A DNA stretch of 64,000 nt from Bacteroidia bacterium (GTDB lineage Bacteria > Bacteroidota > Bacteroidia > J057), in the NCBI GenBank assembly GCA_045106675.1, contig JBGCFA010000014.1, positions 1 through 64,000 on the forward strand, in the 5' to 3' direction. The notes under the pieces were generated by a model that was not told the origin of the DNA, made no database searches, and saw nothing but the letters and a program-made list of their open reading frames with translations. Within the stretch, counting starts at the first letter, position 1, and each line of letters starts with the position of its first letter. Positions 3,421 through 58,274 of the stretch are shown piece by piece. The position numbers and the translations under genes are program-made.

Positions 3421-3480
3421 CGGTGGAACGCTCCTACTCTTAGCCTTGGCCCCGTTTTTCTATCGTTCCGCGCAGCGGTA
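3421..3480. repeat. Degenerate, reverse-oriented copy of the dispersed palindromic repeat family (core GAACGC...GCGTTC / CGTTCCGCGCAGCGG).
   Basis: cggtggaacgctcctactc...tatcgttccgcgcagcgg matches the reverse complement of the consensus ccgtggaacgcttctagcgttctgcgaag seen at 43296-43330. Confidence 0.4.
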
Positions 3481-3704
3481 TACCCCCAAAAACTTGAGCG
3501 TCAGATCGCGTAATAAAATCTCTCGATTTATAGCTACTCATCATTCACGCAGTGGGAATTTGTTCCTGCTGCCTTTTTTTTGATAGAGTTTATCACCATT
3601 TGCGATATAGGAAACACCAATTGTATGGGATGAAATCTCATAATGAGGCAAGCTAAACGCATGAAAACGGCCTTATGATACTGTAGTAAATCTCACTAGG
3701 GCAT

Positions 3705-3727
3705 TTTGCCAAATTTTCTTATTTTTG
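3705..3727 (+). promoter_or_regulatory. Candidate Bacteroidota-type promoter for ffh: TTTG at 3705-3708 and TAttTTTG (TAnnTTTG, -7 element) at 3720-3727.
   Basis: The motifs lie 30-50 nt upstream of the ffh ATG at 3757. The spacing between the -33-like and -7-like motifs is shorter than the canonical one, so the call is weak. Confidence 0.2.
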
Positions 3728-3756
3728 GGTCCCTTTAGTAAATAGGTCAAAACCGT

Positions 3757-5109
3757 ATGTTTGAGAGCTTACAGCAGAATATAGAAGGCGCTTTTCGTAA
3801 ACTGAAAGGCCAAGGAAGAATTACTGACGTCAACGTTGCCGAAACGCTGAAAGAAATTCGGCGTGCTTTGATTGACGCGGATGTAAATTATAAAGTCGCC
3901 AAAGACTTTACCGCTAAGGTAAAAGAAGAGGCTTTGGGACAGGAGATATTGATCTCTGTTTCGCCGGGTCAATTGATGATCAAAATCGTCCAAGACGAGT
4001 TGACAAAATTGATGGGTGGGCAAAATGAAGGCATTAGCACTGCCAAAAACCCTCCTACGGTTATTTTGATTGCCGGTCTACAGGGTTCTGGTAAAACGAC
4101 TTTTACTGGTAAACTTGCCAAATACCTCAAGAGTAAAGGCAAAAATCCTCTGCTAGTAGCGGGTGATGTTTATCGTCCTGCTGCGATTGATCAGTTGGAA
4201 GTCTTAGGTGAGCAGGTCGGTGTGGATGTTTACCATGAGCGGGAAAACAAGAGTCCTGTCGATATTGCGAAAAACGCCATCAAGCACGCTAAGGCAAATG
4301 GCAAAGATTTGGTCATCGTGGATACCGCCGGTCGTTTGGCAGTAGATGAACAAATGATGAGCGAGATCGCTGATGTGAAGTCTGCTATCAATCCTGATGA
4401 AATTCTATTTGTGGTTGATGCCATGACTGGACAGGATGCCGTAAATACAGCCAAAGCCTTTAACGAACGCTTGAATTTTGATGGGGTAGTGCTCACCAAA
4501 ATGGATGGTGATACACGTGGTGGTGCTGCCATTTCGATTCGTTCGGTAGTTGATAAGCCAATCAAATTTATCTCTGATGGAGAAAAATTAGATGCTTTAG
4601 AGCTCTTTTATCCAGAGCGTATGGCTACCCGCATCCTCGGTATGGGTGATGTAGTCTCACTTGTAGAAAAAGCGCAAGAGCAGTTTGATCAAGTAGAAGC
4701 AGAGCGATTACAGCGCAAAATCCGCAAAAATGAGCTGGATTTTGATGATTTTCTCTCGCAGATCAAAGCCATCAAAAAGATGGGTAACGTCAAGGACCTA
4801 CTTGGTATGATTCCAGGTATGGGCAAGATGACCCGTAATATGGATATCGACAATGATGCCTTTAAGCATATTGAAGCGATCATCCAATCTATGACGAGAG
4901 AAGAACGATCTAAACCGCAACTTCTCAATGGTTCACGTCGTCGTCGTATTGCAACTGGTAGTGGACGTAGCGTTCGCGAAGTGAATGAATTGCTTAACCA
5001 GTTTCAGCAGATGAAAAAGATGATGAAGAAAATGAATGCTGCTGGCCGCTCCGGTAAAATGGCACGTAGTATGAGCCAAATGCAAATGATGCAAAATCGC
5101 CGTAAGTAG
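3757..5109 (+). CDS. ffh: Signal recognition particle protein Ffh (SRP54 GTPase).
   Basis: 450 aa. It has an N-domain and a G-domain, with Walker A GLQGSGKTTFTGKLAKYLK, DTAGR and TKMDGD GTPase motifs. The C-terminal M-domain is methionine-rich (MSQMQMMQNRRK). Confidence 0.95.
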   Translation: MFESLQQNIEGAFRKLKGQGRITDVNVAETLKEIRRALIDADVNYKVAKDFTAKVKEEALGQEILISVSPGQLMIKIVQDELTKLMGGQNEGISTAKNPPTVILIAGLQGSGKTTFTGKLAKYLKSKGKNPLLVAGDVYRPAAIDQLEVLGEQVGVDVYHERENKSPVDIAKNAIKHAKANGKDLVIVDTAGRLAVDEQMMSEIADVKSAINPDEILFVVDAMTGQDAVNTAKAFNERLNFDGVVLTKMDGDTRGGAAISIRSVVDKPIKFISDGEKLDALELFYPERMATRILGMGDVVSLVEKAQEQFDQVEAERLQRKIRKNELDFDDFLSQIKAIKKMGNVKDLLGMIPGMGKMTRNMDIDNDAFKHIEAIIQSMTREERSKPQLLNGSRRRRIATGSGRSVREVNELLNQFQQMKKMMKKMNAAGRSGKMARSMSQMQMMQNRRK

Positions 5110-5145
5110 GATTTCGATAGGCAGAATTCAAATGCCAGAGTCAAA

Positions 5146-5210
5146 CTGCAGCATGTAAATTTGAAAAGGAGCGATTCCTTTCCGATTTTACATACTGCAG
5201 TTTTTATTTT
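5146..5210 (+). terminator. Rho-independent terminator after ffh.
   Basis: An inverted repeat ctgcagcatgtaaa...tttacatactgcag forms a 13-bp stem with one mismatch and is followed by tttttatttt. Confidence 0.6.
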
Positions 5211-5236
5211 TGGCTCACCCTTCAAGCTCTACTACA

Positions 5237-7666
5237 ATGAAGTACTTACTCTTTCCTCTCTTATTATTATTTGTAGCACCATTGATCGCACAAGAAAACT
5301 TATCCTACCAAAAACCTCCTACCGAAATACTCGAGTTGGTGGACGTCCCCCTCGCTCCGGGTGTTATCATGGATGTCGAAGCAGAAAATATGATTCTGCT
5401 TTACCGCGATACTTATAAAAGTCTCGCCACGCTTTCTGAAAAAGAAATGCGTCTTGCAGGTCTTCGTATCAACCCTAACACTAATATTGGTAGCCGGACT
5501 ACCTATTATAAAAACCTCAAAGTTCAAAAAGTGAGTGGGGGAGAGGCAGTACAGATTGACGGTTTACCTGAAGAGCCTCGTCTCTCTAACTTCAATTGGT
5601 CGCCTGATCAAACCAAAATTGCTTGTACCAATACAGTAGAAGCAGGAGTTGAAGTTTGGGTATTGGATGTTGCCAGTGCCTCAGTGAAAAAAATCACAGA
5701 AGCGAATGTCAATGCCAATATGGGTAATCCTATCCGCTGGTTAGATGACGAAAAGATGTTGGTCAAGTTTATCCCCAAGGATCGCCAAGACCTGATCAAT
5801 ACGGGTACCAGCGTTCCGGCAGGGCCGACAATCTCTAAAAGCGATGGTGCCAAAGCCCAAAACCGTACCTATCAAGATTTGCTCAAAAATAATATAGATG
5901 AGCATAATTTCGAGCAATTAGCCTATTCAGAATTACATCAAGTCGATTTGAATGGTGGGAGTAAAGAATGGATGGAAAGTGCCATGTATAGTTCAGTTTC
6001 CCTTTCGCCTGACCGTAGTTATGTGATGGTAACGACTATTCACCGCCCGTTTTCTTATATCGTACCTTATTATCGTTTTCCCCAGAAAACCGTTGTCTAC
6101 GAGCGTTCTGGGAAGCAGATCAGTGTTGTCAACGAGATCCCATTGATAGAAGAGATGCCTAAGGGCTTTATGGCGGTGCGTACAGGCCGCAGAAGTATGC
6201 AATGGCGTAGTGATCGTCCATCTACTTTGGTCTGGACTGAAGCTTTGGATGGCGGTGATCCTGAAATGGAAGTGGAATACCGTGATGAAGTATTTCAAAT
6301 GGACGCGCCCTTCCGCGATGGAGCGGTCTCTCTTCTCAAAACTCAGCAACGCTTCAATAACATCCAATGGGCCAGTGATGAGATGGCAATCGCGACTGAT
6401 TATTGGTGGAATACTCGTAATCTAAAAACCTATATATTCAACCCTTCGGATCAGACACAGGAACCTAAACTCCTATATGATCGCAATTATCAAGACCGTT
6501 ATAGTGATCCTGGTAGCTTTGTCAGTAAGCGAAATGAATATGGACGCTCGGTCTTAGAAATGGATAAAAACAATCTGTTTTTGATGGGAGCAGGCTATTC
6601 GGATGAGGGCCAGTTTCCTTTCATTGATAAGCTGAGCCTTAAAGACTTGTCTACCAAACGTTTGTACCAGTCTGCTTATACTGATAAAAAAGAGAGTTTG
6701 AACTCTGCGATAGATATGAAAAATGGGGAAATCCTCGTGCGTATCGAGTCGCCGACAGAGTATCCTAACTACTATATCCGCAACATCAAGAAGGATGATT
6801 TGCAGCAAGTTACGGCTTTTACCAATCCTTTCAAGAGTTTACAAGACGTCCACAAAGAAGTGATCAAGTATAAGCGTGATGATGGACTTGAGCTTTCGGG
6901 TACGCTATACCTTCCTGTCGGCTATGATATGGACGCCAAGGAAAAAATGCCGATGATCATGTGGGCTTATCCGCGCGAATTCAAAGACAAAAATAGCGCC
7001 TCACAGTCCACTTCTAATCCCAATAGCTTTATCTATCCCTATTATGGTTCGATGGTTTATTGGGTGACGCGTGGCTATGTCGTCCTTGACAACGCTGCAT
7101 TCCCAATTATCGGAGAGAAGGAAGATCAGCCTAATGATACCTTTATTCCTCAGCTAGTCGCGAATGCTAAGGCTGCTATCGATGCGGTAGATGAGCTAGG
7201 CTATATTGATCGGGACAGAGTTGCAGTCGGTGGGCACTCTTATGGAGCCTTTATGACAGCAAACTTATTGACGCATTCAAACCTATTTGCAGCAGGTATT
7301 GCCCGTAGTGGAGCCTATAATCGGACGCTGACTCCATTTGGCTTCCAGAGCGAAGAACGTTCTTATTGGGAGGCGCCAGATGTCTACAATACGATGTCGC
7401 CCTTCATGAATGCTGATAAGATGAAAACGCCATTATTGTTGGTGCATGGAGAGGCTGATAATAATTCAGGTACTTACCCGATGCAAAGTGAGCGTTATTT
7501 CAATGCACTTAAAGGTATGGGTGCTACGGCTCGTTTGGTTATACTTCCCAAAGAAAGTCATGGCTATGCGGCTAAAGAGTCTATCCTACACCTACTTTGG
7601 GAGCAGGATCAATGGCTAGAGAAATACGTGAAAAATCGCGTGATGGAAGAGCCGGAGAATAAATAG
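5237..7666 (+). CDS. Secreted S9-family serine peptidase (prolyl oligopeptidase / dipeptidyl-aminopeptidase type) with an N-terminal beta-propeller.
   Basis: The signal peptide is MKYLLFPLLLLFVAPLIAQ. The ORF track starts 27 nt upstream at 5210, but the ATG at 5237 gives a proper signal peptide. The C-terminal alpha/beta-hydrolase has GGHSYGAF (GxSxG nucleophile), LLVHGEADNN (Asp) and ESHGY (His). Confidence 0.85.
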   Translation: MKYLLFPLLLLFVAPLIAQENLSYQKPPTEILELVDVPLAPGVIMDVEAENMILLYRDTYKSLATLSEKEMRLAGLRINPNTNIGSRTTYYKNLKVQKVSGGEAVQIDGLPEEPRLSNFNWSPDQTKIACTNTVEAGVEVWVLDVASASVKKITEANVNANMGNPIRWLDDEKMLVKFIPKDRQDLINTGTSVPAGPTISKSDGAKAQNRTYQDLLKNNIDEHNFEQLAYSELHQVDLNGGSKEWMESAMYSSVSLSPDRSYVMVTTIHRPFSYIVPYYRFPQKTVVYERSGKQISVVNEIPLIEEMPKGFMAVRTGRRSMQWRSDRPSTLVWTEALDGGDPEMEVEYRDEVFQMDAPFRDGAVSLLKTQQRFNNIQWASDEMAIATDYWWNTRNLKTYIFNPSDQTQEPKLLYDRNYQDRYSDPGSFVSKRNEYGRSVLEMDKNNLFLMGAGYSDEGQFPFIDKLSLKDLSTKRLYQSAYTDKKESLNSAIDMKNGEILVRIESPTEYPNYYIRNIKKDDLQQVTAFTNPFKSLQDVHKEVIKYKRDDGLELSGTLYLPVGYDMDAKEKMPMIMWAYPREFKDKNSASQSTSNPNSFIYPYYGSMVYWVTRGYVVLDNAAFPIIGEKEDQPNDTFIPQLVANAKAAIDAVDELGYIDRDRVAVGGHSYGAFMTANLLTHSNLFAAGIARSGAYNRTLTPFGFQSEERSYWEAPDVYNTMSPFMNADKMKTPLLLVHGEADNNSGTYPMQSERYFNALKGMGATARLVILPKESHGYAAKESILHLLWEQDQWLEKYVKNRVMEEPENK

Positions 7667-7732
7667 GTTCTCCTTTCTATAGCATTTAGCGCTGGCAGAT
7701 TACTTGATTTTCTGTCAGCGTTTTTGTTTGGC

Positions 7733-7760
7733 TGCTTCGCAGAACGCTAGAGACGTTTCA
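7733..7760. repeat. Copy of the dispersed palindromic repeat: gcttcgcagaacgctagagacgtttc.
   Basis: Near-identical to the copies at 28969-28998 and 43299-43328. It lies in the 360-bp intergenic region between the convergent peptidase and ABC-F genes. Confidence 0.6.
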
Positions 7761-7910
7761 CACAATCGTTTGACACGCTATATCGGTCCGAAGGACGTAG
7801 ATCGCCTCGCGTGCAGGCACGCCTTCAAACCGAAGAGAGAAGTCTCCGATTTCCCAATTCATGTCTGGCTATCGGGATTCTGCGGAATGAATGTGTGCGA
7901 GATTTTTCAC

Positions 7911-7950
7911 CTCTGCGCTCGTTCGAAATGATCGTTCCGCGAAGCGGACG
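7911..7950. repeat. Second, degenerate copy of the palindromic repeat in the same intergenic region (core cgttccgcgaagcgg).
   Basis: ctctgcgctcgttcgaaatgatcgttccgcgaagcggacg. The dyad CGTTCCGCG/CGAAGCGG resembles the core of the family. Confidence 0.4.
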
Positions 7951-7959
7951 AAAAAGAAT

Positions 7960-8004
7960 CCACCAAAAGCAATCGGCCTCCGAGAATAGATCTCAGAGGC
8001 CGAT
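7960..8004 (-). terminator. Rho-independent terminator downstream of the minus-strand ABC-F gene.
   Basis: The hairpin aatcggcctccgag-aatagatc-tcagaggccgatt has a 13-bp stem with one mismatch. A U-rich run (gcttttgg) follows on the minus-strand transcript. Confidence 0.55.
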
Positions 8005-8026
8005 TTTATATTGAAATCTGGTGATG

Positions 8027-9670
8027 CTACATCATCGCACCTTCCATCATCTTGTCGCGTAATGCCTTGATGTCTTCAGAGCGAATATACTCATCAAAGG
8101 GTAGGTAGCGGTCGATGACACCATTAGGAGTCAATTCGATCACACGAGTCGCGATTGAGTTCATCAATTGCTGGTCATGAGAGGTGAACAGGATATTGCC
8201 TTCGTATTCTTGCATACCCTTATTGAGCGCTTGAATAGATTCGAGGTCCAAGTGATTGGTCGGTTCATCCATGAGGATGAAATTGGGATGCTTGAGCATG
8301 ACTTTGGACATCATACAGCGCATCTTTTCGCCTCCTGAGAGAACGCTAGACTTTTTGTGGACTTCTTCACCCGAAAATAGCATGCGGCCCAAGAAACCAC
8401 GAATAAACTGTTCGTCAGTCTCATCATTTTCTGGGGCATACTGCCAAAGCCAACTAACTAGATCTAGGTCTTGGGCTCCACTGAAGTAAGCTTCGTTTTC
8501 GTTGGGGAGATACTCAGAAATGATCGTTTGCCCAAAATCAAACTTACCGCTATCCTGTTCCATTTCACCCGCCAATATTCCAAATAAAGCGGTAACGGCA
8601 CCTGTGGTACGGCTATAGAAGGCAATCTTTTCGTCTCTGTTGACAGAAAATGAAACGTTCGCGAATAGCGTCGTACCATCATGAGCCTTTTTACCCATCT
8701 TCTCTACCTCTAAAATTTGTCCACCTGCGGGACGTTCAGCGGTAAAGGAGATATATGGATATTTACGACTAGAAGGTTCAATGTCTTCTAGGTTGAGTTT
8801 TGCTAGCGCTTTTTTACGACTGGTGGCCTGTTTAGATTTGGCTGCATTGGCAGAAAATCGCTGGATGAATTCCTGCAATTCTTTACGCTTTTGCTCTGTC
8901 TTTTTGTTTTTGTCGGCGGCTTGTCTCGCCATCAACTGACTAGTCTCGTACCAAAAAGTATAATTACCAGTATAGATACTGATTTTTTGGAAGTCAATAT
9001 CTACGATATGAGTACAGACCATATCAAGAAAGTAGCGGTCGTGAGAACCCACGATCACTTTATTGCGAAAATCAGCTAAGAAATCAGCTAACCAAGTGAT
9101 CGATTCAGCATCAAGATCATTAGTAGGCTCATCGAGTAGGAGAAGATCGGGATCTCCAAAAAGGGCTTGTGCTAGGAGCACTTTTACCTTTTCGGCACCA
9201 CTTAGCTCCTTCATTTCGCGGTAGTGCAAGTCTTCTTTGACACCAAGCTGGCTTAATAATTCGGCAGCATCACTATCAGAAGTCCAACCACCCATCTCCC
9301 CAAATTCAGTTTCTAGTTCCGCAGCGCGTAGACCATCTTCCTCGGTGGCTTCAGGATCCATATAAATGGCGTCCTTTTCCATCATCATGTCATACATCTT
9401 CTTGTGCCCCATGATGACAGTGGTGAGGACTTGTACATCTTGGTACTCAAAGTGATTTTGTTTGAGGACCGCCATGCGGTTGCCTGTTTCGAGGTTAACA
9501 TGACCTCTAGTCTGGTCAACATCCCCTGACAAAATCTTAAGAAAGGTCGATTTCCCAGCTCCATTGGCTCCAATTACTCCATAGCAATTGCCACGAGTGA
9601 ATTTGAGATTGACTTCATCAAACAAGACGCGTTTGCCGTATTGCAAACCTATATTAGATACTGAGAGCAT
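8027..9670 (-). CDS. ABC-F family ATPase (YbiT/Uup-like), with two ABC domains and no transmembrane domain.
   Basis: 547 aa. NBD1 has GANGAGKSTFLKILSG, LSGGEKVKVLLAQAL and LLLDEPTNDLD. NBD2 has LSGGEKMRCMMSKVML and ILMDEPTNHLD. It aligns collinearly with E. coli YbiT. The NBD2 Walker A reads YSRTTGAVTALFG and is degenerate (see finding). Confidence 0.9.
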   Translation of the reverse strand: MLSVSNIGLQYGKRVLFDEVNLKFTRGNCYGVIGANGAGKSTFLKILSGDVDQTRGHVNLETGNRMAVLKQNHFEYQDVQVLTTVIMGHKKMYDMMMEKDAIYMDPEATEEDGLRAAELETEFGEMGGWTSDSDAAELLSQLGVKEDLHYREMKELSGAEKVKVLLAQALFGDPDLLLLDEPTNDLDAESITWLADFLADFRNKVIVGSHDRYFLDMVCTHIVDIDFQKISIYTGNYTFWYETSQLMARQAADKNKKTEQKRKELQEFIQRFSANAAKSKQATSRKKALAKLNLEDIEPSSRKYPYISFTAERPAGGQILEVEKMGKKAHDGTTLFANVSFSVNRDEKIAFYSRTTGAVTALFGILAGEMEQDSGKFDFGQTIISEYLPNENEAYFSGAQDLDLVSWLWQYAPENDETDEQFIRGFLGRMLFSGEEVHKKSSVLSGGEKMRCMMSKVMLKHPNFILMDEPTNHLDLESIQALNKGMQEYEGNILFTSHDQQLMNSIATRVIELTPNGVIDRYLPFDEYIRSEDIKALRDKMMEGAMM

Positions 9671-9824
9671 TTCTTATTAGAATATTTACTGTGTTAGTGA
9701 GAGGTAAAAGCTGTACCATACCTCTATTTATCAGCCTGCAAAGGTACGTAATTTTTCAAAAAAATAACACCTTTGCTAAAGAGTCAGATTTTAGGGTAAA
9801 AAAAATGACATACAGCAGAAATTC

Positions 9825-9850
9825 CTGAACAAAGCTTATCTTTTGTTCAG
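9825..9850 (+). promoter_or_regulatory. Dyad symmetry element ctgaacaaag-N6-ctttgttcag, 30 nt upstream of the cytochrome c peroxidase start.
   Basis: The inverted repeat is 9-10 bp and nearly perfect. It is not followed by a T-tract, so it is more likely an operator or a 5'-UTR structure than a terminator. Confidence 0.3.
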
Positions 9851-9879
9851 CACAATTTTATTAGCAAACCTAAGCAATC

Positions 9880-11376
9880 ATGAAAAAGTATTTACTCTCA
9901 CTTTGTTTGGTGATCTGTATGTTGGCTATTGCAGCCATCCCTATTCGCCCGCTTGTCCTGAGGATGGGTTTGACCGGAGAGCTTGACAGTCCGCTCTTAC
10001 CTCCGGCTCCGTTTTCTTATGAGATTTTTGCAAATCCATTGCCAGATCATTTTTTTGAAGATCTCTCCAATTTAAATGGTAATGTTGGCATTTATACTCC
10101 TGCAAGCGTTTTGCCCACAGAAGTTCCCGACCATATTGAAACTTTAGGACGAGTATTGTTTTATGATAAGCAGCTTTCAATCAACAATACAGTTTCCTGT
10201 GCTACTTGTCATATACAAGCAAAAGCATTCGCAGATACCTTAGCTCTTTCTCTAGGATTTGATGGTTCCAATGGTGAACGCAATTCAATTGGGTTTTCCA
10301 ATGTCTTTATACCTTCTATGCGGCATTTCTTTTGGGATGCGGGCACTGATGCGATGGCCACTCAAATCAAACTTGCGCTCGAAAGTGAAGTGGAAATGGG
10401 CATGAATCCAGCTTTATTAAAAGCTAGGATAGAAAATACCAGTTTTTATCCCAAACTATTTCAAAATGCATTTGGAGACTCTATCGTTACGGTTGATCGT
10501 TCAGTCGCTGCGATCAGGTCCTTTGTTTTGTCGATGCTTACGCTGCGATCAAAGTATGATTTTGGCCGGAGTACGGTGGGCCATCAAACACAATCCTTTG
10601 CCAACTTTAGTAAGCTTGAAAACCGGGGCAAAGATATTTTCTTTGGCATCAATAGTGATGCTCAATGTGCTAGTTGTCATCAAGGTGAACTTTTTATCTC
10701 CAATGAGGCCGTGAGCAATGGTTTGGATTTCAATCCTACCGATCTTGGTTTTGGTGGAGTGACAAACCTGCAGGAAGATATGGGTAAGTTTCGCGTGCCT
10801 AGTCTGCGCAATATTGGTTTTACGGCACCTTATATGCATGACGGCCGTTTTGCGAGCCTTGGAGAGCTTGTTGAGCATTATTCGACTGGGGTGAGTCCGC
10901 ATAGCAATCTGCATCCATTCTTGATTGATTCGATCACTTCGCAACCGAAACGCTTAAATCTATCTCCTACAGAAAAACGGGCATTAATCGCTTTTCTCCA
11001 TACGCTGAGTGATACTACCTTTATCAGAGATGTCCGCTGGTCCAATCCTTTTGATCCCAATCCAGCAGCTGATACCATCCCTGTCAATAGGTTCTCTTTC
11101 ATTCAGCCAGTCGATCCGGTTCCCTTTCTTGACCATCTACTGGTAGCTCCTAATCCAAGTGCTCATACGATGTCCTTTGATGCTAAGGCAAGATTTGTGG
11201 GTGTTAGTAGTTTGCAAGTCTTCAGCTTGAGTGGACAATTAGTTTATCAAGAGATATTTGATGGAACGCCAATTCGTTGGGAGCACAAAAGACAAGGCGT
11301 TCCCGAGGGGATCTACCTAGTTAGACTCGAATCCGATGGGGGAGTCTTTACGAAAAAAGTACAAGTGATCAAGTAA
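9880..11376 (+). CDS. ccp: Di-heme cytochrome c peroxidase (CCP/MauG family) fused to a T9SS C-terminal sorting domain.
   Basis: Signal peptide. Two CxxCH heme motifs (CATCH, CASCH). A CCP-family block PSLRNIGFTAPYMHDGRFASLGELVEHY. The C-terminal ~80 aa (APNPSA...QVFSLSGQLVYQE...GIYLVRLESDGGVFTKKVQVIK) has the pattern of the Por/T9SS CTD. Confidence 0.85.
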   Translation: MKKYLLSLCLVICMLAIAAIPIRPLVLRMGLTGELDSPLLPPAPFSYEIFANPLPDHFFEDLSNLNGNVGIYTPASVLPTEVPDHIETLGRVLFYDKQLSINNTVSCATCHIQAKAFADTLALSLGFDGSNGERNSIGFSNVFIPSMRHFFWDAGTDAMATQIKLALESEVEMGMNPALLKARIENTSFYPKLFQNAFGDSIVTVDRSVAAIRSFVLSMLTLRSKYDFGRSTVGHQTQSFANFSKLENRGKDIFFGINSDAQCASCHQGELFISNEAVSNGLDFNPTDLGFGGVTNLQEDMGKFRVPSLRNIGFTAPYMHDGRFASLGELVEHYSTGVSPHSNLHPFLIDSITSQPKRLNLSPTEKRALIAFLHTLSDTTFIRDVRWSNPFDPNPAADTIPVNRFSFIQPVDPVPFLDHLLVAPNPSAHTMSFDAKARFVGVSSLQVFSLSGQLVYQEIFDGTPIRWEHKRQGVPEGIYLVRLESDGGVFTKKVQVIK

Positions 11377-11385
11377 GGGGTTTTC

Positions 11386-11432
11386 ATTATTCCAGCTTCG
11401 CAGAACGATAGAAGCGTTCTGCGAAGCTGGAA
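11386..11432. repeat. Perfect 47-bp palindrome attccagcttcgcagaacgatagaagcgttctgcgaagctggaat. It is the archetype copy of the dispersed repeat family and lies between convergent genes.
   Basis: A 21-bp perfect stem and a 5-nt loop. There is no flanking T-tract on either strand. The core is shared with copies at 7733, 28969, 43299 and 58275. Confidence 0.8.
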
Positions 11433-11474
11433 TAATAAACAAAAAAGGGAGAAACAAAGTGCTTCTCCCAAAAT

Positions 11475-12635
11475 TTATCTGATAAATTCTTCGAGTTGTC
11501 GTTTGTAGGAAGAATATGAGAAGGCTCCCTTGACGATATAAAAGTTTTCTGGATCGACTACGTGGCGGTAAGCATGCTTAGCCAATTTAAGGCGGTAAGA
11601 ATCATACGAAATAGTGCCTAACATCTGGCGTATGTGCTCACTACTAAGAGGATATTGTTCGGCGATACGCTTACCAATTTGGAGTTTGTCCTTGTCATAA
11701 TTGGCTTGGCGCATATCTCTCAATAGCCCGCGAAACTCTTGCTCGCTAACAAGCCGCTGTGGTTGATGATATTGATCATTATAATTTCTGTCATCATACT
11801 GTGGTTCCTCTTGGTAGTAGGTACCACTGCCATGGGCACCGCAGCTACCATTTCGACAAGGCTGGCATATTTGCGGCGGAGAATTTTTTGGCGCAAAGCG
11901 AGGATGGTGTCCCATATAGTCTTGCAATGAACGTTGATAAGCACGGCGACTAATCTGTTGCTCGACTATGCGGAAGTTTTCTGGATCAACTACTCGCTCC
12001 CAACCCAATTTTGCCACTTGCAAAATATGATCTTCGTGGTTCATCGCCTTCAATAGCTTAGACAACTGACGACTGCTAAGACAAGTAGTGCGGACGATCT
12101 GTTTGGCAGTACGAAACTGATTCTCAGAGCCACGACTATTGTAAACAGCTTTAAGCGCCTGTTGAAAATCTCCTTGGTGCATAGGAATGGCGCAATAATC
12201 AGCATTTTGATACTGTCCTTGACCTCTACCTTTGTTTTGTCCATAAGCATTTCCGTTGCCACGAGGACCGGCTTGACGTGGTCGTGTACTCGGAGTGTAT
12301 TGACGGATAGGCTCTGAAGCTGTTTTTTGGAGAGTCATCATATCTCGGCCTCGCCGAACGAGTGTAAATATTACACGTTCGTTTTGTGGGAGATAAACGC
12401 GATCAAATTGAAGCGTTTTTTGACGACCGTCAACCATTCGCATAGCGATATGGTGGTTTCCCGCTTGTAAATCTGGGATTATGACTTGGCTTTGAGGAGT
12501 TCGGTTAAATGTTCTGCCATTAATCTTGAGGAGGAAAGGGCCATTGTTGCTTTTGACGACCATTTCGGCATTGTAAGCAAAAGCTAAACTCAAGCTGGCA
12601 AGTAAACCAAAAAATAAAGTAACAATCCGTTTCAT
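11475..12635 (-). CDS. Secreted hypothetical protein with two C-terminal DUF4476-like repeats.
   Basis: 386 aa. The signal peptide is MKRIVTLFFGLLASLSLAFA. The N-terminal region is beta-rich, and a Q/G/P-rich low-complexity linker follows. A module of about 45 aa is duplicated: LSKLLKAMNHEDHILQVAKLGWERVVDPENFRIVEQQISRRAYQRSL and EHIRQMLGTISYDSYRLKLAKHAYRHVVDPENFYIVKGAFSYSSYKRQL. The DUF4476 assignment is from memory of that family's pattern. Confidence 0.55.
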   Translation of the reverse strand: MKRIVTLFFGLLASLSLAFAYNAEMVVKSNNGPFLLKINGRTFNRTPQSQVIIPDLQAGNHHIAMRMVDGRQKTLQFDRVYLPQNERVIFTLVRRGRDMMTLQKTASEPIRQYTPSTRPRQAGPRGNGNAYGQNKGRGQGQYQNADYCAIPMHQGDFQQALKAVYNSRGSENQFRTAKQIVRTTCLSSRQLSKLLKAMNHEDHILQVAKLGWERVVDPENFRIVEQQISRRAYQRSLQDYMGHHPRFAPKNSPPQICQPCRNGSCGAHGSGTYYQEEPQYDDRNYNDQYHQPQRLVSEQEFRGLLRDMRQANYDKDKLQIGKRIAEQYPLSSEHIRQMLGTISYDSYRLKLAKHAYRHVVDPENFYIVKGAFSYSSYKRQLEEFIR

Positions 12636-12855: not shown

Positions 12856-14244
12856 TTAAGCAGCTTCCTGCTCTTTCTTCTGGAGTTCGACGAAGTCAGT
12901 AGCAGTGATCTTCTCAGTCTGTCTAGTAACCTTATTGTCGAGATAGTCATAGAGACGATCATTGGTCATACGACGATGGTGCATATCTAGCATCTCTTGG
13001 TTACCCATAGAGTATTCGGTGTATTGCTGCATCATCTCATCTGTAAGCTCCTCTTCACGAGTGGCAAAGCTATCTTTGATGGCCTGCTTCATGCTCTCCT
13101 CAATATCTTCGCGCTCAATGCGGTTGAAACCTTCACCTTGTTGGATTTTTTCAACGACGAGACTCCAAGTAACAGAAGTGGTAAATTCGGGATAAGCCGC
13201 TTCTACATCTTCCATTGTTTTGTACTTCTCTTCGTTTTCGAGCAACCAAACTTTGAGAAACTCATCAGGAAGCGTGAGAGCGTTAAGCTCCATTAGTTCC
13301 TTCTGGACCTGATTACGGAACTGCCATTTAGTAGATTCTGTGAGCTCTTTTTTCATTTGCTCCTTCATCTTCGCGCTAAATGTTTCTAAGTCTGCAAACT
13401 CAGTTTCATCCCACTGTAGATTTTGAGCCACTTTGGTAAAGAACTCAGGATTGAGTTCGGCTAGTGAGATGCGGTTGATACGCTTCACCTCAAATTTGAG
13501 TTTCTTTTTGCGTAACTCCTCAAGCTCCTCTACTTCCATGAAAATTAGTTTGCCGATTTCAGCAACATCCTTTTTCATTTTGAAGATATCTAAGTCAGCT
13601 ACTTCCTCAAGCTTCATACCTATATAAGGCTTGAAAAATTTAGGATTTTCAACTCTGATTGGGTTGAGGGCGATCATGCGCTGAAAGCCTTCTTCTACCG
13701 CTTCACCTGCATCATCTACTTCAAAAGCACTACCATAAATGATATCGCCATCACCAACTTCTTCTGGTGTCTGTACCTCGCCAAAACGATCTTGATAGTT
13801 TTTGAGCTCTTCTTCGAAGAACGCATCGTCAATTTCAACTTCGTATTGAGTAGGCGTTTCTTTGAAATCATAACTCACCTCAAATTCAGGCGCTAGTCCT
13901 ACTTCAAAGACAAAATCCATTGCAGTTTTGCAATCAGGATCAAAGTCCTCTTCGGTGAGTTCATGCTTAGGCATTGGATGCCCTAGTATGTCAAGCTTTG
14001 TTTCCGTCAAGTAATCAGTAAGCTCTTTGCTTACTTTCTTATTGACTTCTTCAACCACGATGGAGCTTCCAACCATCTTTTTGACCATGCCCATAGGCAC
14101 TTTTCCTGCTCTGAAGCCAGGTATGTTAGCCTGCTTCGCATAACGCTTAAGTTCTGTATCTACTGCGTCTTTATAGTCCTCTGGCGCCAAATGGATATTG
14201 ATATGGGCCGTAAGATTGCCAGTACTTTCTTGGGTGATATTCAA
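12856..14244 (-). CDS. tig: Trigger factor (ribosome-associated chaperone with a PPIase domain).
   Basis: 462 aa. The N-terminal ribosome-binding domain carries the signature GFRAGKVPMGMVKKMVG (compare E. coli GFRKGKVPMNIV). The overall acidic composition and the length fit trigger factor. Confidence 0.85.
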   Translation of the reverse strand: MNITQESTGNLTAHINIHLAPEDYKDAVDTELKRYAKQANIPGFRAGKVPMGMVKKMVGSSIVVEEVNKKVSKELTDYLTETKLDILGHPMPKHELTEEDFDPDCKTAMDFVFEVGLAPEFEVSYDFKETPTQYEVEIDDAFFEEELKNYQDRFGEVQTPEEVGDGDIIYGSAFEVDDAGEAVEEGFQRMIALNPIRVENPKFFKPYIGMKLEEVADLDIFKMKKDVAEIGKLIFMEVEELEELRKKKLKFEVKRINRISLAELNPEFFTKVAQNLQWDETEFADLETFSAKMKEQMKKELTESTKWQFRNQVQKELMELNALTLPDEFLKVWLLENEEKYKTMEDVEAAYPEFTTSVTWSLVVEKIQQGEGFNRIEREDIEESMKQAIKDSFATREEELTDEMMQQYTEYSMGNQEMLDMHHRRMTNDRLYDYLDNKVTRQTEKITATDFVELQKKEQEAA

Positions 14245-14318: not shown

Positions 14319-14400
14319 TACGGATGAAGGGACTCGAACCCCCACGCCTTGCGGCACCAGATCCTAAATCTAGCGCGTCTACCAATTCCGCCACATCCGC
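14319..14400 (-). tRNA. tRNA-Leu (anticodon TAG), long variable arm, CCA not encoded.
   Basis: The reverse complement reads GCGGATG-TG-GCGGAATTGGTAGACGC-GCTAGA-TTTAGGA-TCTGG-TGCCGCAAGGCGT-GGGGG-TTCGAGT-CCCTT-CATCCGT-A. The acceptor stem is 7 bp, and the T-loop is TTCGAGT. The anticodon loop tTAGga has a 5-bp stem. Confidence 0.85.
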
Positions 14401-16798: not shown

Positions 16799-17309
16799 GT
16801 TAAGTATCCCTCTTATTGTATTGATGCTTTGTGCGTTTAGCCTTGCTTGCCAAACAGCTCAGGAACCAAAAAACACTTTGTCACTCGCTGACCTATATAC
16901 GAGTGCAAGCCAACTTGAGCAGCCTATCCAAGGAATGGAGGCAAAACCTATGTTGAGTAAAATGCAGATACATGTTCGGGCCTTGCAAACTGAACTGAAA
17001 AATTTGGATCAGCGCATTGAAGAAACACAGTCTGCTCATCGTTCTCAAACTGGTATTATGCTTACCGATTCGATCTTCGGACGCTTAATCAATGAGATGA
17101 ATGCCCTACAAGGGGTTATGAAGCCGCTTTGCCAAAAACTAGAAGGGGTTTCTCTTCCCTTTGATGTCGATGCTTTGAGAAAAGAAAGCCCTGAAACAGA
17201 GTTTGGCCAGCCGCCACTTGCTAATCAAGTAATCTTGCAACAGCTTTCTACTGATGTCCAAGAAACTGAAAGAGCGATATTAGAGGCAATCGTAAGTCAT
17301 AGCCCCTGA
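16791..17309 (+). CDS. Hypothetical lipoprotein. The start ATG overlaps the rel stop (ATGAATAA).
   Basis: MNKLSIPLIVLMLCAFSLAC has a lipobox Cys. Coiled-coil-like sequence follows (QIHVRALQTELKNLDQRIEETQ). The ORF track begins at 16755 in the same frame, but 16791 gives the lipoprotein signal. Confidence 0.5.
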   Translation: MNKLSIPLIVLMLCAFSLACQTAQEPKNTLSLADLYTSASQLEQPIQGMEAKPMLSKMQIHVRALQTELKNLDQRIEETQSAHRSQTGIMLTDSIFGRLINEMNALQGVMKPLCQKLEGVSLPFDVDALRKESPETEFGQPPLANQVILQQLSTDVQETERAILEAIVSHSP

Positions 17310-17499: not shown

Positions 17500-18165
17500 A
17501 TGCAAGAATTGTTTCGTGAAGCCATTACAGGCCCTAATCTCCTTTATACAATTTTACTAGGTTTCGTACTCCTTTATTTCCTTTCTGTCTTATTAGGCGC
17601 ACTGGATTTAGAGTTCTTCGAAATCGAACTTGATGCTGATATTGATATCGATGTAGATATCGATATGGATGTAGAGGCTGAAGCCGATGCAGATGTCGGA
17701 GGAGGAGGGCTCTTTGTGAACGTATTATCCTTCCTCAACATCGGGAAAGTGCCATTTATGATCTATGTTAGTTTGGTCATCCTTTCGATGTGGGTAATTG
17801 GGATCATCGCCAATCATATTTGGTATCCCACCTATAGTTGGTTTCCTCTTGCCTTGATGTTACCTAATTTTTTGCTCAGTCTATTGGTCGGCAAACTATT
17901 GTCAGAGCCATTTAAAAGCTCTTTTAGCAAGATCAATAAGCAAGGCCTTTCTAAAACCAAATTAGTCGGCAAGATATGTCAAGCTAGGACGACTCTGCGT
18001 TCCGATGCAATCGGCCAAGCAGAAGTAATGGTCGGAGAAGATCACCACACTATCACAGCCAAACTGCAAAAGGAGAAAACTCCTATCAAAGCAGGCGAAA
18101 AGGGCCTCATCATTGAATATCATAAGGACGATGACTATTTTATAGTAGCGCCTTTTGACGTATAA
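17500..18165 (+). CDS. YqiJ/NfeD-like inner-membrane protein (DUF1449-type) with a C-terminal OB-fold domain. It is the expected partner of the downstream flotillin.
   Basis: 221 aa. An N-terminal TM segment, then an acidic run DADIDIDVDIDMDVEAEADAD, then two or three TM helices. The C-terminal beta-rich segment GKICQARTTLRSDAIGQAEVMV...GEKGLIIEYHKDDDYFIVAPFDV resembles the NfeD C-terminal OB domain. The gene sits 34 nt upstream of the SPFH gene, as in E. coli yqiJ-yqiK. Confidence 0.6.
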   Translation: MQELFREAITGPNLLYTILLGFVLLYFLSVLLGALDLEFFEIELDADIDIDVDIDMDVEAEADADVGGGGLFVNVLSFLNIGKVPFMIYVSLVILSMWVIGIIANHIWYPTYSWFPLALMLPNFLLSLLVGKLLSEPFKSSFSKINKQGLSKTKLVGKICQARTTLRSDAIGQAEVMVGEDHHTITAKLQKEKTPIKAGEKGLIIEYHKDDDYFIVAPFDV

Positions 18166-18199
18166 AACTCATATTAACACTCAACCATATTATTAACGC

Positions 18200-20377
18200 A
18201 TGAACGATTTACTAATTAACATTGGTATTTTTGGCGGCAGTATTATTCTAGGCATTGTCTTAGTCTATGTAATCCTCGTCGCGGTGTTCTATCGCAAAGT
18301 CACGCAGGGGAAAGCCCTCGTTCGCACTGGGATGGGAAACACCAAAGTAGCCTTTGAAGGGATGTATGTAGTACCGCTATTACATACAGCGGAGGTTATG
18401 GACATTTCCCTTAAACAAGTTGTCATCAGCCGAGAAGGCAAAGATGGCCTAATTTGTAAAGACAATATCCGAGCTGACATTAAAGTGGTGTATTTTGTAC
18501 GCGTCAACGCTACCAACGAAGACGTCAAAAAAGTCGCCAGAACCATCGGTTGTAAACGAGCTTCTGATCTCGAAATGTTGATTCAACTTTTTGAAGCGAA
18601 ATTTTCAGAAGCCCTCAAGACAGTGGGTAAGCAATTTGACTTTGTTGATCTATACAATGCTCGTGCAGAGTTTCGTGATAATATCGTGAGCCAAATCGGA
18701 CAGGATCTCAATGGTTACTATCTCGATGACTGTGCGATTGACTACCTCGAGCAGACAGATATTGATCATCTAGATGAAGAAAATATCCTCGATGCAGAAG
18801 GTATCAAGAAAATTCGCGACCTGACTGCCAAGCAGATTACGCTTGCCAACAAGATCCAACGTGAAAAGGAAAAAGAAATCCGCAAACAGGATGTCGAAGC
18901 GCAGGAAGCAATCCTTGAGTTAGATAAGCAACTCGTTGAAAAAGAAGAAGTTCAAAAGCGTGAAGTTGCTTCGGTGAGAGCTCGTGAACTAGCTGAAACC
19001 CGCAAAATACAAGAAGAGGAATCTCTCAAAGCAGAGACAGCCCGTATCGCTAAAGAGCGTGATCTCGCCATCCAGACTGAAAATAAACAGCGTGATGTCA
19101 TAGTTGCCTCCAAAAACAAAGAACGTACAGAAGCTATCGAAACCGAAAAGGTGGTTCGCGATAAGGAACTTGAATCGACTGAAAGAGAGCGTATCGTTAC
19201 GCTAGCTAAGATTGAAAAAGAGAAAGCTGTTGAAGAAGAAAGGAAGAACATCCAAGATGTGATCCGCGACCGAGTAGCGGTAGAACGTGAGGTAGTCGAA
19301 GAGCAAGAAAAGATCAAGGATACTGAAGCTTTTGCCACGGCAGACCGCGAGAAAAAAGTCGCTTTGACTAAAGCAGCCCAGACTGCGGAAGAAGAATTGG
19401 TTCGCAAGATCAAAGGCGCCGAAGCGGATAAAGAAGCTTCTCAGCTAGTCGCTGAAAAGCGTATCATAGAAGCCAATGCGTTACGCGAAGCGATCGATAA
19501 AGAAGCCGAAGCTAAAAAGATCATGGCTGATGCAGTCGCCGTAGAGCATGCCTCTATCGGTATGGCCGAAGCCAAAGTCATGGAAGCCAAAGCCGACGCT
19601 CATCAGAAAGAAGGTGAAGCCCAAGCCAATATCCTTGAACAACAAGCCGTTGCAGAAGCTAAAGGCATCGAACTCAGAGGAGAGGCCCAAGCCGAATCTA
19701 ATCGTAAGATTGGTCGTGTTGATGCCGAACTCTCCATCGATCGTGGTATGGCCTTAGCACAGGTTACAGAAGCACAAGCTATCGCTGACGAAAAAGCAGG
19801 TATTGCCGAAGCCAAAGTCATCGAGCATAAAGCCCTCGCTGATGCCAAAGGCGTAGAAGCCAAAGCCGAAGCCATGCAAAAACTCGATGGGGTAGGCAAA
19901 GAGCACGAAGAGTTCAAGCTACGCTTGGAAAAAGATAAAGAAGTCGAATTGGCTCAAATCTCTATCCAGCGTGAAATTGCTCAGGCTCAGGCTCAAGTCC
20001 TTTCTGAAGCGCTGCAACATGCTAAAATCGACATCGTCGGTGGCGAAATGGAGTTCTTCGATCGTATCACCAATGCGGTTGGTCAAAGCAAATACGTCGA
20101 TAAGATCATGGAAAACCAGCACGTGGAAGAACTCAAAACGGCTCTCCTTGGCTCTGGTGGCAATGGCGACTTTCAAGGTAAACTGCGCGACTTTATCAGT
20201 CAGTTCAAATTGTCTACTGATGACATTCGCAATCTGACTGTATCTGCCCTGATCATGAAAATGCTCAGCCAGACCCAAGACGGTGAGAAGCAAGGGATAC
20301 TCAATCAATTGCTCAATACAGCCACCACACTGGGGATTGCCGATAAAAAGGCCGATAGTTTGGGCATAAGTATCTAG
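18200..20377 (+). CDS. Flotillin-like SPFH/band-7 protein (YqiK/FloT type).
   Basis: 725 aa. An N-terminal TM helix is followed by an SPFH domain (ISLKQVVISREGKDGLICKDNIRADIKVVYFVRV). A coiled coil of about 400 aa follows, with the flotillin-type Ala/Glu-rich repeats AEAKVMEAKADAHQKEGEAQANILEQQAVAEAKGIELRGEAQAE. Confidence 0.88.
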   Translation: MNDLLINIGIFGGSIILGIVLVYVILVAVFYRKVTQGKALVRTGMGNTKVAFEGMYVVPLLHTAEVMDISLKQVVISREGKDGLICKDNIRADIKVVYFVRVNATNEDVKKVARTIGCKRASDLEMLIQLFEAKFSEALKTVGKQFDFVDLYNARAEFRDNIVSQIGQDLNGYYLDDCAIDYLEQTDIDHLDEENILDAEGIKKIRDLTAKQITLANKIQREKEKEIRKQDVEAQEAILELDKQLVEKEEVQKREVASVRARELAETRKIQEEESLKAETARIAKERDLAIQTENKQRDVIVASKNKERTEAIETEKVVRDKELESTERERIVTLAKIEKEKAVEEERKNIQDVIRDRVAVEREVVEEQEKIKDTEAFATADREKKVALTKAAQTAEEELVRKIKGAEADKEASQLVAEKRIIEANALREAIDKEAEAKKIMADAVAVEHASIGMAEAKVMEAKADAHQKEGEAQANILEQQAVAEAKGIELRGEAQAESNRKIGRVDAELSIDRGMALAQVTEAQAIADEKAGIAEAKVIEHKALADAKGVEAKAEAMQKLDGVGKEHEEFKLRLEKDKEVELAQISIQREIAQAQAQVLSEALQHAKIDIVGGEMEFFDRITNAVGQSKYVDKIMENQHVEELKTALLGSGGNGDFQGKLRDFISQFKLSTDDIRNLTVSALIMKMLSQTQDGEKQGILNQLLNTATTLGIADKKADSLGISI

Positions 20378-58265: not shown

Positions 58266-58274
58266 TGCGGATAA

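Follow-up and report, generated by a model that had tools for sequence, protein, structure and literature searches.

The DNA analysed here is a 64,000-nt stretch of the Bacteroidia contig JBGCFA010000014.1 (hereafter, the window), and our subject is an inverted repeat at positions 11386-11436 that belongs to a family of short hairpin-forming repeats dispersed along it. The repeat lies between two convergent genes. To its left is a gene for a di-haem cytochrome c peroxidase with a type IX secretion system (T9SS) tail (9880-11376, plus strand), and to its right is a DUF4476 gene (11475-12635, minus strand) whose genuine terminator (11447-11469) adjoins the repeat. The initial annotation had described the site as a perfect 47-bp palindrome. 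Read base by base, it is instead a 51-nt inverted repeat in which 22 nt on either side (one side being ATTATTCCAGCTTCGCAGAACG and the other its complement) pair perfectly around a non-palindromic 7-nt spacer, ATAGAAG; an inverted-repeat search placed the two halves at 11383-11407 and 11415-11439, with 96% complementarity and 7 nt between them. As single-stranded DNA (ssDNA), positions 11386-11436 fold with an energy of -26.4 kcal/mol (z = -11.5 when compared to shuffled sequences). Moreover, the unit that is repeated is a 15-nt arm rather than the palindrome as a whole, and the main site is an inverted doublet of two such arms. A single arm has a fold energy of -2.5 kcal/mol under a thermodynamic model that leaves out the special stability of GNA triloops, and for that reason the value is probably an underestimate.

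On one strand, which we refer to as the TKC strand, the arm reads C-N-G-C-T-(T/G)-C-G-C-N'-G-A-A-C-G; on the opposite (GNA) strand it comprises a CGTT tag, a 4-bp stem (CNGC/GCN'G) and a G-N-A triloop, making up a mini-hairpin of the GCGAAGC type. (Arms were described either by a covariance model, R1, or by the pattern NNGCTNCGCNNAACG; as an oligonucleotide, one strand of the arm is TCTATCGTTCTGCGAAGCAG.) We aligned 63 distinct arms from the window and from related metagenome-assembled genomes (MAGs), a set that includes related copies and in which two subtypes dominate the covariation counts. Within this alignment the CGTT tag is invariant and 94% of stem cells are paired; stem position 2/10 is T-A in 35 arms, C-G in 20, G-C in three and A-T in one (four are unpaired), and the covariation score and double-change count were reached in none of 500 column shuffles. 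When arms outside the training set of the model and variant partner arms are included, compensatory changes are seen across all four stem pairs. Examples are the stems CTCC-GAA-GGAG at 47872, CCCC-GAA-GGGA at 32923, CCAC-GGA-GTGA at 43320 and CCGA-GAA-TCGG at 28992; the variant arm at 28992-29006 retains all four pairs through a C-G to A-T change, and that at 43320-43334 (CGTT-CCAC-GGA-GTGA) retains three pairs together with the GNA loop. The middle base of the loop varies freely (GAA in 47 arms, GCA in 13, GGA in two and GTA in one). The preservation of the stem through compensatory changes argues that the arm is an element that acts as a folded single strand, either ssDNA or RNA, and that it is not read as duplex sequence. 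Note that, of the stem cells that depart from Watson-Crick pairing, seven would be G-T wobbles if the TKC strand folds and none would be if the GNA strand folds (p = 0.016), which hints that the TKC strand, the complement of the GNA strand, may be the one that folds. In an Rfam search of the window at the gathering threshold the arms matched no family (the sole match was a tRNA-Leu at 14319-14400), and a known RNA family was rejected for this reason.

The copies named in the initial annotation can be placed in this family. A direct-repeat search groups 7732-7768, 11393-11429, 28969-29005 and 43298-43334 as one family (D8), to which the three sites listed as near-identical cores (7733-7760, 28969-28998 and 43299-43328) belong together with the main site. 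The three sites listed as shorter versions (3421-3480, 7934-7948 and 58275-58289) contain real arms of a second subtype, CGTTCCGCG(A/C)AGCG(G/A), at 3464-3478, 7933-7947 and 58276-58290; these appear on the opposite strand. The 13-mer core of the arm has 11 matches in the window at up to one mismatch and 21 at up to two, when compared to means of 0.03 and 0.91, respectively, for 400 permutations of the motif that use the same letters. A dispersed family of hairpin-forming repeats is thus real, with copies where they had been claimed and in numbers far above chance. The covariance model, run without filters, gave 16 matches in the window at E < 0.05. Arms in the window are split 10:10 between the strands and show no replication-strand bias, and the GC skew is uniformly positive across the window; a polar motif like Chi or the FtsK-orienting polar sequences (KOPS) was rejected because there is no strand bias despite this uniform skew.

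Distribution, organisation and position of the arms

When species-representative genomes were scanned for the pattern, the motif turned out to be repeated in three MAGs of uncultured Bacteroidota, namely CAZHOC01 (13 loci), JBCCQN01 (three) and JBCAWW01 (two); scattered single matches in other such genomes are compatible with chance. (Loci and contigs of relatives carry labels of the L008-L040 type; L026, L027, L032 and L034 are in JBCCQN01, assembly GCA_039024315.1, and L008, L020, L023, L029 and L030 are in CAZHOC01.) With a Logan contig added, at least four further assemblies of Bacteroidota carry arms, and the element is not genome-specific as had been proposed. The ABC-F protein of the window is ~72% identical to Phaeodactylibacter proteins and 92% identical to one MAG protein (JBCCQN01), which indicates that the source organism is among Saprospirales-like Bacteroidota. 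Two relatives whose ABC-F protein is 73-74% identical (L039 and L040) carry no arms in 36 kb, even at one mismatch. Judged from these sequences, the family is clade-restricted, yet wider than one genome. In DNA that was not ascertained by the motif (the window, L032, L034 and L035) there are 22 arms in 97 kb, a density at which a genome of 5 Mb would hold roughly a thousand arms. A scan of viral contigs gave no match, and a metagenome scan for short doublets gave as its sole match L033, which is a different long palindrome (2748-2820, ~70 nt and near-perfect, AAAAATGCAACGAACGCTTCGCGGAACGATAACTGAATTCAGTTATCGTTCCGCGAAGCGTTCGTTGCATTT) that has the arm core inside it in a different context. A literature search for the arm 13-mers, and for the repeat flanking the GIY-YIG gene of L036 (see below), found nothing relevant.

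Some arms are solo; others are paired in 37-nt doublets, where an MTAGAAN spacer separates an arm from its inverted partner, or form the two ends of ~110-nt units that resemble miniature inverted-repeat transposable elements (MITEs). This agrees with the organisation suggested initially, like that of repetitive extragenic palindromes (REPs), of the hairpin-forming REP doublets known as REPINs, or of MITEs. Doublets begin at 11393, 28969 and 43298 in the window, and at 6434 in L026 and 3579 in L027 of JBCCQN01. The spacer MTAGARG is common to the four window doublets, and doublets of the closest relative have the spacers ATAGAAA and CTAGAAT. The distance between two inverted arms ranges from 7 to more than 100 nt, and in the MAG loci the conserved part is the 15-nt arm only; arm pairs in these loci are 33-120 nt apart, and inverted arms overall bound units of 33-212 nt. 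CAZHOC01 has four full ~110-nt units with arms at both ends and 78% mean column identity. That copies have spacers and interiors in common argues that whole units were copied. No target-site duplication is evident at four aligned ends of the ~110-nt units or at the window doublets. (Note that the interiors of the ~110-nt family, found in L020, L023, L030 and L008, consist of nested TTCGAA-centred modules (GAATGTAGAATTTCGAA...) that are partly rearranged among copies.)

We entertained the idea that the arms are the terminal inverted repeats of a conventional MITE family, one that descends from a DDE-type insertion sequence and of which 7734-7945 would be a 212-bp copy. The bounding of 33-212-nt units by inverted arms and the ~110-nt family of CAZHOC01 are what such a family would offer. 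The lack of an evident target-site duplication at the four aligned unit ends argues against it, as do the many solo arms, the fact that the arms are themselves co-varying hairpins, and the interiors at 7747-7932 and around 28969, which are unique DNA that is not repeated; nor was a transposase or insertion sequence seen. We regard this explanation as extremely improbable. Both 7734-7945 (212 nt) and 28795-29067 were rejected as MITE copies or as decayed GIY-YIG genes, since they have unique interiors and no protein similarity, and two solo arms, each with a terminator of its own alongside, are the better reading of 7734-7945.

The arms usually sit 0-12 nt past the T-tracts of intrinsic terminators, and their orientation with respect to the terminated gene is fixed. 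In the window this is seen for the arms at 7732, 7933, 11415 and 43298, and in relatives for those at L032 3607 and L034 9818 together with sites in L008, L011, L021, L023, L026 and L027. This fixed site just past terminators leads to a pile-up of arms between convergent genes, and so accounts for the concentration there that the initial annotation had noted. The remark that the copies lack T-tracts holds for the arms themselves, but most of them directly adjoin genuine terminators (7971-8005, 11447-11469 and 43248-43287). A terminator scan of the window called these three adjoining hairpins and no arm or doublet, and on this basis the arms were rejected as intrinsic terminators. Integron attC sites, dif/Xer sites and CRISPR repeats were rejected too, there being no arrays, no R'/R'' motifs and many dispersed copies. 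The TKC strand is T-rich in its 5' flank across 41 arms whose detection did not depend on the search pattern.

Contig L032 is syntenic with window positions 3660-11120, and in the orthologous spacer between the Peptidase_S9 and ABC-F genes it has an arm at the same place, directly past the terminator; the terminator stems differ. L032 stops 30 nt past the stop codon of the gene whose counterpart in the window is followed by the doublet, in keeping with an assembly that broke at a repeat. L035 ends exactly at a 43-nt inverted repeat, and such repeats appear to break short-read assemblies. In practical terms, the arm repeat breaks metagenome assemblies and creates spurious open reading frames (ORFs).

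A GIY-YIG gene bracketed by arm doublets

The only gene that we found bracketed by arms encodes a small GIY-YIG nuclease of UPF0213, a family with solved structures but no assigned role (its PDB relatives, 1ZG2 and 1YWL, are both labelled hypothetical). In L029 of CAZHOC01, a doublet (759-799) on one side and a half doublet (1349-1375) on the other enclose a gene for a 100-aa GIY-YIG protein. The homolog in JBCCQN01, the closest relative of the window, was fetched by protein similarity, blind to the repeats, and its product is 84% identical to the L029 protein; in L034 the gene (10001-10306) has a complete doublet on either side, at 9818-9858 and 10394-10434, with 97.7% identity between the two over 43 nt. 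The two loci are non-orthologous, with SprA and YkgJ as neighbours in L034 and a phosphatidyltransferase and nadD in L029. Positions 58270-58289 of the window match the arm flanking the L034 gene at 20 of 20 nt. Between each doublet and the GIY-YIG gene there is a hairpin, and the two hairpins are 11-bp terminal inverted repeats (AAAGATCCCGG...CCGGGATCTTT). The cassette is ~520 bp long (L034 9871-10388 and L029 812-1330). Its two copies share 82% identity across 643 nt, non-coding parts among them, and it resembles an independent small mobile unit. A gene-less arrangement of arm, linker and AAAGATTCCGGAATCTTT (the AAAGATYCCGG end structure) occurs in L016 and L031. Here AAAGATTCCGGAATCTTT is a perfect palindrome (L016 4857-4874 and L031 95-112, in two different MAGs) that lies 11-14 nt from the arm, and it looks like two cassette ends joined without the gene, that is, an empty site or a minimal derivative. 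In a search for empty sites of the cassette, its neighbouring genes were found in no other locus examined.

Hairpin repeats, specific to each locus, also accompany more distant homologs. The 43-nt inverted repeat of L035 flanks a GIY-YIG homolog. In L036, from an unrelated Bacteroidia MAG, the GIY-YIG gene (3502-3801) lies in a nest of repeats (3100-4070) with GCGAAGC/GCGCAGC cores. The repeats of this nest are direct and inverted, 50-120 nt long, and composed of CTCGCAATGACG / CGTCATTACGAG and of GCTTCGC / GCTGCGC modules; of ten module copies in 13.8 kb, nine are no more than 500 bp from the gene. In L037, a contig of 66% GC, an inverted doublet of a GC-rich hairpin, GCCCCGGGnnnnnCCCGGGGC, lies upstream of a GIY-YIG homolog (9823-9937), and a third copy of the hairpin is found 7 kb away (16879-16899) between convergent genes, in what is a REP-like family of different sequence. 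A literature search found no link between GIY-YIG proteins and repeats of the REP/REPIN type. From this genomic context, the GIY-YIG nuclease is the best available candidate for a trans-acting enzyme.

A different possibility is that the arms are a classical REP/REPIN family served by an ordinary REP-associated tyrosine transposase (RAYT), an IS200/IS605-like Y1 transposase encoded elsewhere, and that the GIY-YIG cassette is an unrelated mobile gene that inserts in doublets. The tagged hairpin, the solo and inverted-doublet forms, the variable linkers, the location between convergent genes and the lack of an evident target-site duplication at four unit ends are all in keeping with this idea. 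So too are the terminal inverted repeats that the cassette has of its own and the presence of the doublet on both sides of it, duplicated as a target would be. However, Pfam annotation of the window finds no transposase, RAYT/Y1-like ORF or NusG paralog, and no RAYT/Y1 gene was found in ~200 kb of in-clade loci by a crude search that is a weak test. Furthermore, an arm with a 4-bp stem and a CGTT tag is far smaller than the REPs that have been described, and the copies in coding sequence would be left unexplained. We consider this account unlikely.

Our preferred reading, in which we have about even confidence, is that the 51-nt hairpin is an inverted doublet of a 15-nt unit and is part of a clade-restricted REP/REPIN-like family that spreads by copying, with the GIY-YIG protein as its candidate enzyme. 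Whole units would be copied to new sites by a trans-acting, structure-specific nuclease that acts on the hairpin and its CGTT tag, as a RAYT does with GTAG-tagged REPs; the candidate is the ~100-aa UPF0213-type GIY-YIG nuclease, bracketed as it is by duplicated arm doublets in two relatives. Any effects on RNA, through long hairpins in read-through transcripts, would be secondary. Because the tag is neither GTAG nor CGTC and the arms are not strictly extragenic, we describe the family as REP/REPIN-like in its working and do not file it in the RAYT-linked family.

Arms inside genes and limits of simple copying

The copies had been described as wholly intergenic, and the element as extragenic. 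Using the covariance model together with pattern searches we found about ten further arms inside genes, made in place (Table 1). Non-coding DNA, which is ~15% of the window, has ~1.1 arms per kb and coding DNA has ~0.18 per kb. Four of the 16 model matches at E < 0.05 lie outside the training set, and all four are in coding sequence (47866, 52968, 6098 and 12342). The GNA strand is the sense strand in nine in-gene arms and the opposite strand in four. The copy at 3421-3480 does contain a real arm, but its setting is not intergenic; the arm lies within leftover C-terminal coding sequence of a decayed gene. What is left of a DUF2330-family gene at window positions 3380-3583 is its final ~50 codons; an in-frame stop falls at ~3413, and the terminator of that gene (~3545-3580) comes next. 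The gene (981 aa) is intact, and has the same arm, in the closest relative (L032 7764-10709), and in the window the rest of it is replaced by unrelated sequence. L032 carries further perfect arms in coding sequence, and an orthologous coding arm is identical between two other MAGs, at L016 and L031.

Several observations weigh against spread by simple copying with a GIY-YIG enzyme. The link to the nuclease consists of two loci and two gene-less end structures, and since the cassette has terminal inverted repeats of its own, the doublets could equally be its preferred insertion target, duplicated on its entry. In addition, the prototype of UPF0213, E. coli yhbQ (26% identical), is a host gene in a tightly packed setting, and no repeats are annotated on its flanks; a general association between UPF0213 genes and repeats was rejected as not universal on this evidence. 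The arms in coding sequence are a second difficulty. The KRYAKQ encoded by the arm in the trigger-factor gene aligns without gaps with RNIAKN of a Vibrio protein, and the alignment with E. coli trigger factor is gap-free as well. In the Peptidase_S9 gene, the window has GAG CGT TCT GGG AAG CAG (ERSGKQ) where the L032 ortholog has GAT TTG AGC GGT AAG GAA (DLSGKE); most of the 15-nt arm differs, a switch of serine codon family included, there is no indel, and the sole deviation from the arm consensus preserves the glycine common to both orthologs. The gap-free alignments and the absence of indels argue that the coding arms are not insertions and that they arose in place with protein length unchanged, an outcome not predicted by a cut-and-paste or copy-and-paste element. 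A further process would be needed for them; abundant copies might serve as donors for short-patch conversion, for instance, or the motif might be favoured by a drive or by selection.

One process that would enrich a motif in genes as well as between them is biased uptake of, and recombination with, kin DNA that carries an uptake signal, like the uptake signal sequences (USS) or DNA uptake sequences (DUS) of other bacteria. An in-place origin in genes fits such a signal, as does the recurrent low-cost frame TTC TAT CGT TCY GCG MAG CRG (FYRSAK/Q). The same can be said of the presence of the motif in both orientations (10 versus 10) without replication-strand bias, its enrichment in coding and non-coding DNA, the inverted pairs beside terminators, and the fact that it behaves as a clade-level 'dialect'. 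However, all four stem pairs of the arm co-vary, and a receptor for duplex sequence needs no such pairing; the spacers of the doublets and the ~110-nt interiors that are common to copies point to whole-unit copying, and doublets flank a nuclease gene. Arm density is several-fold below that of Neisseria or Haemophilus uptake sequences, the window encodes no competence genes, and a literature search found no link of uptake sequences to Bacteroidota. An uptake signal is therefore, in our view, very unlikely.

A third set of observations that weighs against simple copying concerns how well some arms have been kept. In the orthologous Peptidase_S9/ABC-F spacer of L032 the arm is kept exactly and the rest of the spacer is unalignable (the ABC-F protein of this relative being 92% identical), a pattern that looks like purifying selection or repeated conversion over neutral junk. 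Also, three of the four window doublets have a perfect left (terminator-proximal) arm and a drifted right arm. Such conservation could reflect a host function, in which the motif is read single-stranded during transcription and kept by selection, either as a hairpin in non-template DNA for the recruitment of a NusG-family protein or the pausing of RNA polymerase (like the operon polarity suppressor, ops, or opsX) or as an RNA hairpin that limits read-through or antisense transcription where genes converge. The GNA strand (CTGCGAAGCAG / CCGCGAAGCGG) closely matches Bacteroides fragilis opsE and opsA, and position and orientation are fixed relative to terminators; the exact arm amid diverged flanks, the retention of left arms whose partners decay and the wobble asymmetry between the TKC and GNA strands likewise favour a host function. 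Against it, arms occur about once per 4 kb, at 3' ends and in both orientations in genes, whereas ops sites are few and in 5' leaders. Moreover, the window encodes no NusG paralog, the multi-copy 37-nt and ~110-nt units with common interiors indicate copying over independent selection, and relatives at ~73% identity live without the motif. We think it improbable that host function explains the family.

Simple selfish copying thus leaves three things unexplained: arms made in place in coding sequence, an exact arm in a scrambled spacer, and a terminator-proximal arm that survives the decay of its partner. These three observations bring in, as alternatives, a conversion-type drive, a host function in ssDNA or RNA, or an uptake-like process, the last being less likely because the stem co-varies. 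A bolder and, in our judgement, doubtful form of the REP/REPIN-like reading would take in the first of these. In that form, the UPF0213 GIY-YIG nuclease of a REPIN-like replicator would recognise CGTT-tagged GCGNAGC mini-hairpins in ssDNA, spread doublets to sites just past terminators and set off short-patch conversion by which 15-nt stretches within genes are rewritten to fit the hairpin consensus.

Table 1. Arms and doublets located in the window, with their scores under covariance model R1.
Feature	Position	Strand	R1 score	Remarks
Arm in remnant C-terminal coding sequence of DUF2330-family gene	3464-3478	-	31.8 bits	Reads ..FYRSAQRY..
Arm-like patch CGTTCTGGGAAGCAG in Peptidase_S9 gene	6104-6118	-	19.2 bits, E 0.028	Encodes ERSGKQ; ortholog GATTTGAGCGGTAAGGAA (DLSGKE)
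Arm CTGCTTCGCAGAACG	7732-7746	+	33.7 bits	6 nt past T-tract of Peptidase_S9 terminator; followed by CTAGAGACGTTTC, a decayed partner
Arm, plus strand CGTTCCGCGAAGCGG	7933-7947	-	28.9 bits	Adjoins A-rich run preceding terminator 7971-8005 of convergent ABC-F gene
Inverted doublet (main site)	11386-11436		31.7 + 29.2 bits	Arm 11393-11407 (+), spacer ATAGAAG, arm 11415-11429 (-); pairing reaches 22 nt per side
Arm-like hairpin in DUF4476 gene	12346-12360	+	18.7 bits, E 0.035	Minus strand CGTT-CGGC-GAG-GCCG; outside training set
Arm in trigger-factor gene	14131-14145	+	26.3 bits	14/15 match; encodes KRYAKQ; no insertion
Arm in 725-aa gene, plus strand CGTTACGCGAAGCGA	19479-19493	-	20 bits	
Arm in DUF3686 ATPase gene	22126-22140	+	19 bits	G-C at stem position 2/10
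Doublet	28969-29006	+	31.2 bits	Arm 28969-28983, spacer CTAGAAGA, variant arm 28992-29006 (CGTT-CCGA-GAA-TCGG)
Arm in 2223-aa PKD/T9SS gene	38872-38886	+	31.3 bits	G-C at stem position 2/10
Doublet	43298-43334	+	30.9 + 17.4 bits	Arm 43298-43312 directly after terminator 43248-43287, spacer CTAGAAG, variant arm 43320-43334
Weaker arm CGTTCCGCAAAGCGG in kinase gene	46058-46072	-	16.4 bits, E 0.12	Encodes GRSAKR
Arm in kinase-like gene, CGTT-CTCC-GAA-GGAG	47872-47886	-	25.1 bits, E 0.0013	Third pair flipped from G-C to C-G; outside training set
Arm-like hairpin in Metallophos gene, CGTT-CTGC-GCG-GCAG	52974-52988	-	20.6 bits, E 0.014	Outside training set
Solo arm, plus strand CGTTCCGCGCAGCGA	58276-58290	-	25.3 bits	10 nt past homogentisate dioxygenase stop codon
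Weaker arm AGTTCTGCGAAGCAG in AraC-family gene	60131-60145	-	17.3 bits, E 0.073	

The window is otherwise an ordinary Bacteroidota chromosome, with ffh, the ABC-F gene, trigger factor, relA/spoT, topoisomerase I and T9SS cargo proteins. At its left edge, positions 1-3039 (minus strand) hold an ORF of at least 1013 aa that runs off the window and is for that reason missing from the ORF list; with a signal-peptide-like N-terminus near 3020, 198-nt tandem repeats (329-915) and an AT skew of -0.35, it encodes a large repetitive secreted protein. Two inverted repeats are unrelated to the arms, and each is probably a terminator or operator: one at 5143-5203, just after ffh, has 28-nt arms, and the other at 61424-61483, before a gene for a FAD-dependent protein, has 23-nt arms 14 nt apart. 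A cluster at 17500-25967 encodes a membrane protein with a YqiJ_N domain, a 725-aa protein with AEAK-type repeats and no Pfam match, a 213-aa unknown protein, and a ~1600-aa DUF3686 ('ATPase involved in DNA repair') / DUF7902 / AAA protein; the cluster is possibly a module for defence or repair.

Comparison with known systems

Every arm has at its core, on one strand, GCG-N-AGC, the sequence of the d(GCGAAGC)/GCGNAGC mini-hairpin studied by Hirao, which is extraordinarily stable in DNA (review PMC13037366), and the free choice of the middle base in the loop exactly fits the GNA triloop rule. That mini-hairpin is a physical motif rather than a genomic element, and the arms add to it two co-varying or conserved pairs and the CGTT tag. 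A nearly identical hairpin is found in the same phylum: the opsE (CTGCGAAGCATA) and opsA (CCGCGTAGCGCA) sites of Bacteroides fragilis are GCG-N-AGC hairpins of the non-template strand that are recognised by UpxY (PMC11685472), and like the arms, the ops/opsX sites of RfaH and UpxY (PMC11685472) have T-A and C-G as alternatives at the same stem position. However, an ops site is single, lies in the 5' leader of a specific operon and has one orientation, whereas the arms recur at 3' ends and in genes and in both orientations, with no UpxY-like gene near them in the window.

Neisseria DUS and Pasteurellaceae USS resemble the arms in that they are enriched in and between genes, arise in place, form inverted pairs beside terminators and come in clade-specific dialects. 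Unlike the arms, they are read as duplex and show no stem covariation; the arms differ further in that units with common spacers are copied whole, and in their lower density. MITEs such as Correia/NEMIS and Nezha are likewise non-autonomous, multi-copy, intergenic units with inverted termini. Arm units differ from them in having no evident target-site duplication, termini that are autonomous hairpins also found solo, and interiors that are mostly unrelated. Rickettsia palindromic elements (RPEs) are a precedent for a palindromic repeat that is tolerated within protein-coding genes, but RPEs are in-frame insertions of ~100-150 bp that add residues, whereas the arms replace codons over 15 nt and leave protein length unchanged.

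Repeats of the REP type are known for the most part in Proteobacteria and go together with RAYT transposases. The arms have much in common with the REPs, bacterial interspersed mosaic elements (BIMEs) and REPIN-RAYT systems of E. coli, Pseudomonas and Stenotrophomonas (PMC2817692), including a short hairpin with a fixed tetranucleotide tag, solo units or inverted doublets with variable linkers, many copies between convergent genes, no evident target-site duplication, and a small nuclease gene flanked by doublets. The REPs tabulated by Nunvar in 2010 (PMC2817692) are 21-37 nt long and most are GTAG-tagged, whereas the arm is a 15-nt unit with a 4-bp stem whose CGTT tag is neither GTAG nor CGTC. 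A strictly extragenic distribution is among the defining features of REPs, whereas arms are also found in genes, where they are made in place, and the gene flanked by arms is of the UPF0213 GIY-YIG type, with no RAYT found in the window or in the ~200 kb searched (a weak test). What sets apart this family of uncultured Saprospirales-like Bacteroidota is therefore an extremely small unit that is read as a folded strand, a strict position and orientation after terminators, and in-gene copies, which suggest a conversion-type drive or a host function. If the link to the GIY-YIG nuclease holds, it would give this nuclease family a testable function and provide a new example of a partnership between a repeat and an enzyme; and if the GIY-YIG protein does drive a replicator, a function would be at hand for widespread small nucleases, and the REP lifestyle would have had a second, independent origin.

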